From IMG/VR virus record IMGVR_UViG_3300029702_000330: 34,527 bases of DNA; one strand, written 5' to 3'. How positions within the stretch are numbered: the first letter of the stretch is position 1; every line of letters starts with the position of its first letter. This DNA comes from a virus (Duplodnaviria > Heunggongvirae > Uroviricota > Caudoviricetes). A model generated the notes under the pieces. The model searched no databases. It was not told where the DNA came from and saw only the letters and a program-made list of their open reading frames with translations. Shown here in pieces: positions 11,243 to 11,705 of this stretch. The translations under genes and the position numbers were made by a program.

Positions 11243-11453
11243 TTTCATATTGGCGAGGCAACGGTAGTTAAGTAGAATGGCTGCGGGTGCTTGAGGCTAT
11301 CTGCCTCGGGCATGAACACCAACGGCAGATAGAGAAAAGCCCCAGTTAACATTACGCGTCCTGCAAGACGCTTAACATTAATCTGAGGCCAATTTCATGC
11401 TAGACACATGTAGGTTAGCCTCTTACGTGCCGAAAGGCAAGGAGAAGCAGGCT

Positions 11454-11609
11454 ATGAAGCAGCAAAAGGCGATGTTAATCGCCCTGATCTTCATCTGTTT
11501 AACCGTCATAGTGACGGCACTGGTAACGAGGAAAGACCTCTGCGAGGTACGAATCCGAACCGGCCAGACGGAGGTCGCTGTCTTCACAGCTTACGAACCT
11601 GAGGAGTAA
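11454..11609 (+). CDS. hok: Hok/Gef-family type I toxin (membrane-depolarising peptide); in-frame upstream extension to 11397 may be a mok-like leader
   Basis: 'MKQQKAMLIALIFICLTVIVTALVTRKDLCEVRIRTGQTEVAVFTAYEPEE' is a near-canonical Hok/Gef sequence; GGAG RBS; followed by a strong terminator. Confidence 0.85.
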   Translation: MKQQKAMLIALIFICLTVIVTALVTRKDLCEVRIRTGQTEVAVFTAYEPEE

Positions 11610-11677
11610 GAGACCCGGCGAGGGAGAAATCCCTCGCCACCTCTGATGTGGCAGGCATCCTCAACGCACCCGCACTT

Positions 11678-11705
11678 AACCCGCTTCGGCGGGTTTTTGT
11701 TTTTA
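11678..11705 (+). terminator. Rho-independent terminator of the hok transcript
   Basis: AACCCGCTTCGGCGGGTT hairpin followed by a T-run. Confidence 0.6.

Follow-up and report, generated by a model that had tools for sequence, protein, structure and literature searches.

A complete hok/mok/sok module of the HokD/HokW type in a lambda-like Escherichia coli prophage

The region from about 11250 to 11705 of the 34,527-nucleotide phage-derived sequence analyzed here (the window) is an ordinary, complete RNA-controlled hok/sok module of the HokD/HokW type found in the lambda-like prophages of E. coli. We consider it very likely that the whole locus is an intact hok/mok/sok type I toxin-antitoxin module belonging to this prophage subgroup. 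All of the hallmarks were found, namely a hok promoter, leader, in-frame mok start, tac and fbi elements, ucb/dcb switch, Sok target hairpin, terminator, and Sok gene. The locus contains no insertion sequences, frameshifts, or premature stops, in contrast to the K-12 loci hokC, which carries IS186, and hokD, in which the leader is replaced by relBE. A first-pass annotation of this DNA had placed the locus at 11397-11705; the reading frame and terminator within that span are real, but the span omits the hok promoter and 5' leader, and the locus actually starts near 11250. No feature of the locus departs from the known hok/sok kind, and the locus itself is already known. Transcription, processing, and toxicity of the window copy are predictions, and its RNA ends are positions that we infer. 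Features described below are on the plus strand unless stated otherwise.

The toxin gene (11454-11609) encodes a 51-amino-acid peptide of the HokD type, forming the 3' portion of an open reading frame (11397-11609) whose translation is MLDTCRLASYVPKGKEKQA-MKQQKAMLIALIFICLTVIVTALVTRKDLCEVRIRTGQTEVAVFTAYEPEE. In the 70-amino-acid product of this frame, the Pfam family HOK_GEF (PF01848) covers residues 25-66 over the full model (E 3.5e-22, 78 bits, compared to a cutoff of 22 bits), and PHROG 251, "MokW-like host killing", matches with an E value of 7.9e-32. The peptide has both the N-terminal transmembrane helix and the TRK..LCE..R..G..EV core characteristic of the Hok/Gef family, and its invariant core residues are common to R1 Hok, HokD, and HokW. 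It is 98% identical to HokD of K-12, from which it differs by the single change V13F, 90% identical to HokW of Stx2 phage I / Sp5, and 43% identical to R1 Hok. These matches uphold the Hok/Gef assignment of the first-pass annotation, and the family motif that it had quoted is present exactly in the translation. The exact F13 toxin has been deposited as HokD on 120 contigs, and the exact 70-amino-acid Mok-Hok product has been deposited, under the names HokD or Hok family toxin, on roughly the same number (about 120). Expression of HokD or HokW is toxic, and K-12 HokD has served as a toxic control. By analogy with this 98% identical protein and with hokW-sokW, the V13F toxin is predicted to be toxic as well. 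A UACG motif at 11592-11595 is formed by the Tyr47 codon TAC and the following G.

The toxin is predicted to be translated from an mRNA of about 420 nt (11285-11704), the start of which is placed by homology and promoter spacing and the end by the T-run of a terminator. The candidate promoter (11250-11278) consists of a -35 element TTGGCG, a 17-nt spacer, and a -10 element TAGAAT, scores 9/12 in a consensus scan, and ends 7 nt before the first position of the Rfam match described below; its -10 region, GTTAAGTAGAAT, is conserved in all of the prophage copies aligned. The leader is 169 nt long and matches the complete Rfam model RF01794, "sok" (model positions 1-157; 115.3 bits, E 8.6e-26; gathering score 59). 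Model position 1 aligns at 11285, and the match, at 11285-11459, stops on the hok ATG. RF01794 also matches K-12 hokC (118 bits), hokB, hokW, and an R1-type IncFII hok locus (87 bits), in every case on the hok-sense strand. At the other end of the transcript, the terminator that had been reported downstream of the gene is an intrinsic terminator at 11678-11704, in which the hairpin AACCCGCTTCGGCGGGTT (11678-11695) is followed by a run of T residues.

Within the leader, the first-pass annotation had proposed that ATG 11397 opens a mok-like coupling frame, and comparison with related loci agrees with this proposal. The 70-codon mok frame (11397-11609) begins 19 codons (57 nt) upstream of the hok ATG at 11454, is open through the hok start, and shares the hok stop codon, as mokC and hokC do in K-12; homologous frames are annotated as mok or MokW in phage records. 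A putative Shine-Dalgarno sequence, GAGG (11385-11388), lies 8 nt before the mok ATG, is conserved in all of the aligned loci, and is the same motif as that of R1 mok. The geometry of this sequence and the ATG is identical in eight other loci, including the annotated mokC, mokB, and phage Rac mok. The reading frame itself varies: the window, mEp460, hokW, hokC, and one IncFII copy have mok in frame with hok, and a Rac-type phage (Rac442), IncY phage-plasmids, and hokB have it in the +1 frame. In the Rac-type and IncY copies, a 1-nt indel causes the shift and mok ends 7 nt before the hok stop. This variation among relatives suggests that the translation of mok matters and that the mok peptide does not, as was concluded previously (PMC9841398). 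The hok Shine-Dalgarno sequence GGAG (11441-11444, within CAAGGAGAAG) overlaps the complement of the sok -35 element, and CAAGGAGAA at this site is invariant in all nine aligned loci.

Folding of the mRNA in silico reproduces the regulatory switch of this family. The minimum-energy fold of 11285-11704 has a free energy of -175 kcal/mol (z = -8.9 relative to shuffled sequences), with the caution that thermodynamic folds of a 420-nt RNA are indicative only. The first-pass annotation had pointed to fbi and tac as elements to look for in such a fold, and both pair with each other in it: the tac element GGGUGCUUGAGG (11285-11296) pairs with the fbi element CCUCAACGCACCC (11659-11671), giving a duplex of 12 bp with one bulge. 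The duplex has a predicted free energy of -21.5 kcal/mol compared to a shuffle mean of -15.3, a value equaled in 5 of 300 shuffles. The tac sequence is nearly invariant among hokD, hokW, hokC, hokB, and IncFII hok; compensatory changes occur on both sides of the duplex in hokB, and fbi is lost in the IS186-truncated hokC of K-12. In the same full-length fold, the anti-Shine-Dalgarno box GCCCCAG (ucb, 11339-11345) pairs with 11383-11389 and sequesters the mok Shine-Dalgarno sequence. When the 3' end is trimmed to 11650, tac instead pairs with ucb at 11339-11343 and the mok Shine-Dalgarno sequence pairs with dcb (11418-11422), generating a predicted Sok target hairpin (11385-11422). The loop of this hairpin, CUAGACA (11400-11406), contains a YUNR-type CUAG and is complementary to the 5' end of Sok, and the hairpin is the counterpart of hairpin three in the RF01794 consensus. 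In the published R1 model, ucb pairs with the Shine-Dalgarno sequence in the closed form, and tac/ucb and Shine-Dalgarno/dcb pairing follow 3' processing (PMC9841398); the modeled response of the window RNA to 3' trimming would reproduce this closed-to-open transition. The hok start region is paired with 11584-11600 in every fold, consistent with dependence of hok on mok translation.

Every fold also contains a 9-bp stem-loop in the 3' untranslated region (11617-11638), which, by analogy with the truncated R1 mRNA, probably forms the 3' end that protects the processed transcript. The 3' untranslated region (11618-11699) additionally gave a full-length match on the plus strand to isrK, a Salmonella prophage sRNA family, at 25.7 bits, below the gathering score of 50. 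Both isrK and a second sub-threshold candidate, rsmX, were rejected as descriptions of this region, the alignment reflecting only a generic resemblance between two-hairpin structures.

The first-pass annotation had expected an antisense Sok RNA over the leader and could not locate it by eye; it is found on the minus strand, inside the stretch (11300-11460) in which a search had been suggested. The sok promoter (11412-11440, minus strand) has a -35 element TTGCCT (11440-11435), a 17-nt spacer, and a -10 element TAACCT (11417-11412). Transcription would start at G 11405, 7 nt downstream of the -10 element, a position that matches the annotated sokC of K-12, 8 nt inside mokC. The predicted RNA (11331-11405, minus strand; approximately 71-78 nt) has the 5' tail GUCUAGCAUG, a long hairpin, and then CUUUUCUCU. 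Its fold as a 75-nt molecule (-30.3 kcal/mol, z = -5.3) has a single-stranded 5' tail followed by a long hairpin and a U-rich tail. Its putative ends, at about 11405 and about 11331, are approximate, and at the level of sequence a Sok gene is present. The segment from the -35 element through the -10 element to 11405 is identical to that of hokW-sokW of Stx2 phage I / Sp5, and the blocks formed by the -35 element and the spacer do not vary within the family. A sigma-70 consensus scan of 11000-11850 returned no minus-strand promoter. We did not accept this result as proof that a sok promoter is absent, as the validated -10 element of sokW is the same TAACCT, which matches the consensus at only three of six positions; this poor match explains why the promoter was missed both by eye and by the scan. 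When the sokW -10 element was changed to GAGCCG with primers YO-421/422 ("pro-less"), antitoxin activity was lost, and it was partly restored in trans by a fragment equivalent to 11303-11457 of the window (PMC8621323). The same study reported 71 nt of complementarity for sokW (PMC8621323), and all of its primers and probes map exactly to the Stx2 phage I locus in our alignment (PMC8621323).

The strand of Sok merits comment because RF01794, although named "sok antitoxin", matches the toxin strand. We considered whether Sok could be encoded on the sense strand and ruled this out with K-12 as a control: the RF01794 matches there (L007 602-754 and L008 567-718) lie opposite the annotated sokC and sokB, such that sokC is the complement of the matched strand. 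RF01794 thus models the hok mRNA leader, Sok is the reverse complement, and a strand call taken from the Rfam match would misplace Sok. The proper label for the locus is hokD-type hok/mok/sok with the Sok RNA on the minus strand, an RNA that automated pipelines leave unannotated; beyond correct annotation, the importance of the locus is small.

Two features of the predicted antisense RNA vary among relatives. Its hairpin (window 11344-11383), like the complementary part of the hok leader, is 18-19 nt longer than those of the Rfam consensus, hokC, hokB, and IncFII hok, an extension common to all of the prophage and IncY copies of the HokD/HokW type. In addition, of the seven differences that separate the window Sok from SokW, six are located in the 5' recognition tail and the target loop (window 11389-11404), where the window has CUAGACA and hokW-sokW has CUGAACA. 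Related copies occur at up to nine places in a single E. coli genome, and the sequence differences in the recognition region could prevent cross-talk among hok/sok copies that share a genome.

Taken from homology and in-silico folding, the steps by which the module might operate are as follows. The promoter at 11250-11278 would constitutively produce a stable mRNA of about 420 nt, in which pairing of 5' tac with 3' fbi would keep the mok Shine-Dalgarno sequence locked against ucb, leaving the full-length RNA untranslated and unbound by Sok. Slow 3' trimming would strip off fbi, allowing tac to pair with ucb and the mok Shine-Dalgarno sequence to join the dcb hairpin, which would present the loop CUAGACA. 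Ribosomes starting at the mok ATG (11397) would then open the otherwise closed hok start (11454), and the membrane toxin would be made. As long as the unstable, approximately 75-nt Sok is transcribed from the 11440-11412 promoter, it would pair with the loop and the mok start region, blocking mok and hence hok and marking the duplex for RNase III. Toxin would therefore appear once Sok synthesis stops, for which the likeliest occasion would be prophage induction; at that point Hok would speed up both membrane damage and the release of phage. Killing of the cell after loss of the element or infection by another phage may be further roles. Weighing against this account is earlier work, cited in a published survey of hok genes, in which the chromosomal hokA, hokB, and hokC loci gave no post-segregational killing.

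The case for a role at induction comes from hokW-sokW of Sakai prophage 5 and Stx2-converting phages, which has the same architecture in the same lambdoid-prophage position (PMC8621323). In the prophage, RecA-dependent induction is accompanied by the disappearance of sokW RNA and the appearance of HokW (PMC8621323), lysis starts about 40 min earlier, and phage release is doubled (PMC8621323). DNA identity between the two loci is about 94% over 11266-11681; tac, the sok -35 and -10 elements, the hok Shine-Dalgarno sequence, and fbi are identical, mok is likewise in frame, and both share the extended Sok hairpin. They differ in the six Sok substitutions described above, at the Hok C-terminus (FTAYEPEE in the window compared to FVDYESEK in HokW), in the sequence after fbi, where the window has a clean terminator, and in their upstream neighbors. 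By analogy with hokW-sokW, a helper role upon induction is the most likely one for the window module, although the HokW results would transfer to it only as an analogy given the six recognition-region positions at which Sok differs from SokW. Whether a copy serves as a lysis helper, an addiction module, or an exclusion module is not something that sequence decides. If the induction-helper role of HokW is general, such modules would affect the timing of bursts in lambdoid prophages, Stx phages among them.

The distribution of the locus bears on whether it is active at all. Most complete E. coli genomes contain related sequence (4722 of 5426), which is annotated hokD there, and 3883 hold at least 80% of the locus; 79 phage records, with the annotation MokW, HokD, or gef, contain it as well. 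Elsewhere, many copies have been interrupted by IS elements or cut short, as would be expected if the locus were a hitch-hiking remnant that is structurally intact and biologically silent, retained solely through its place in a mobile prophage, with Sok always in excess and Hok never produced. We find this highly improbable, given that every regulatory element is kept in the window and, at 90-99% identity, in thousands of genomes, that hokW-sokW, with approximately 94% identity, functions in its native prophage, and that a published survey found hok genes to be enriched roughly four-fold in prophages.

Comparison with K-12 illustrates what loss of parts of the module looks like. The hokD (relF) gene of Qin encodes the same toxin apart from V13F, is 99.3-99.7% identical to the window from 11440 to 11730 in its 3' half, and is followed by the same rem and ydfU genes in the same Qin-type prophage on the rspB side. 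However, relBE has taken the place of its hok promoter, tac, ucb, mok start, and complete Sok gene, none of which it retains; homology begins only at 11440, and there is no RF01794 match. The window contains the complete form, of which K-12 hokD is a truncated derivative. In hokC/mokC/sokC (gef) of K-12, mok is in frame and shares its stop with hok, and Sok starts 8 nt inside mok, but the leader is 19 nt shorter, the Sok hairpin is short, the 3' end with fbi has been removed by IS186, and several toxin positions differ. The R1 hok/sok (parB) system has the same order of elements and the same predicted switch, with tac/fbi and ucb/dcb pairing, mok coupling, and a Sok target hairpin. It differs in its toxin, in its plasmid rather than prophage setting, in its shorter Sok hairpin, and in its tac sequence, which is GGCGC compared to GGGUGC in the window, with matching changes in fbi.

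The placement of the locus inside a prophage, as first suggested, is supported by collinearity of the window with a Qin-like lambdoid prophage beside rspB. The gene order is integrase, xis, exonuclease, dicB, dicA/dicC, DUF262, hokD, rem, ydfU, Q, lysis, terminase, and tail. The hok locus is in the early-right, nin-like region upstream of rem-ydfU-Q, which, together with the extended Sok hairpin, identifies the HokD/HokW subgroup, and it is co-directional with the early-right operon. Rfam matches above the gathering score elsewhere in the window, a DicF sRNA at 4775-4826 (minus strand) and cspA-type thermoregulator leaders at 15014-15406 and 17915-18300 (both plus strand), are typical cargo of Qin-type prophages.

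Upstream of hok, the window encodes a 604-amino-acid DUF262/GmrSD_N protein (9011-10825) that has the Pfam domain and matches PHROG 26759 over its full length. The first-pass annotation had grouped this gene and hok into a small accessory cluster. The two are indeed adjacent, but a functional pairing is rejected on distribution: the arrangement occurs in 16 of 5426 complete E. coli genomes compared to 3883 with most of the hok locus, and the upstream neighbor of hok is variously relBE, IS elements, an AAA ATPase, or EaA-like genes. DUF262 and hok are co-located cargo at a variable site and not a functional unit. The N-terminus of the DUF262 protein resembles N-terminal domains of the PADLOC defense proteins NsnA (E 9.5e-28) and PD-T4-2_A; no PADLOC model matches Hok or Rem. 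This resemblance, together with the ability of R1 hok/sok to stabilize plasmids and to lower T4 plating, could be read as evidence that the module is mainly an addiction or abortive-infection device that kills cells upon loss of the prophage or infection by a foreign phage and gives no help to the lysis of its own phage. We regard this as doubtful. Mis-segregation does not remove an integrated prophage, and a large published survey found no enrichment of hok beside defense systems. Adjacency to DUF262 is rare, as noted above, and the only direct test in a prophage, that of hokW-sokW, gave a pro-phage effect (PMC8621323).

The orientation of the locus raises a further question, namely whether Hok is produced mainly by read-through of the early-right operon from the dicC side via DUF262, with the mok/Sok circuit being secondary. 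Such transcripts would have no free 5' tac and, in addition, would run into the sok promoter. From 6687 to 14239 every gene has the same orientation as hok, there is no strong terminator between DUF262 and hok, the sole candidate (11177-11196) being weak, and K-12 offers a parallel in the expression of relF/hokD from the relBE operon, behind which hokD retains only its Shine-Dalgarno sequence, coding region, fbi, and terminator. Moreover, loss of sokW RNA and appearance of HokW were seen only on RecA-dependent induction, by a mechanism that the authors left open (PMC8621323). As a principal source of Hok, read-through nonetheless seems unlikely to us: it is argued from sequence, and the window retains its own promoter and a complete mok, Sok, tac, and fbi apparatus that would be pointless if read-through dominated. 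It would in any case complement Sok-controlled expression from the hok promoter more than exclude it. Read-through on induction could silence the sok promoter head-on, and occlusion of this kind would explain the RecA-dependent loss of SokW. If so, hok/sok would be a lysis-timing device wired to the prophage switch. We offer this tentatively, along with the idea that a 29-amino-acid peptide encoded upstream could be a second small membrane protein or a modulator of the cassette, and consider these suggestions rather improbable.

The peptide in question is encoded in the only part of the region that has not already been described, a 290-bp block (10960-11245) that abuts the hok -35 element. About a third of E. 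coli genomes (1818 of 5426) contain the block, which is unannotated in every record listed and lies directly upstream of hok in all five loci inspected. It contains a hydrophobic open reading frame, MLVLKCALAITAVMAIYCLAIVLMDHLSD, that extends from GTG 11153 to TGA 11242 behind an AGGAGG Shine-Dalgarno sequence, with a possible promoter (TTGAAT-17-CATATT) at about 11088-11116. In copies with about 90% identity the frame remains open, the changes being two synonymous and three conservative substitutions. Searches of Pfam and PHROGs gave no match for it, and gene callers have occasionally predicted it as a hypothetical or membrane protein.

Farther downstream, the segment from the Q antiterminator to the lysis genes (13473-20529) breaks the collinearity between the window and the closest relative found (L009), which elsewhere matches the window at 95-98%. 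This indicates a mosaic module swap.
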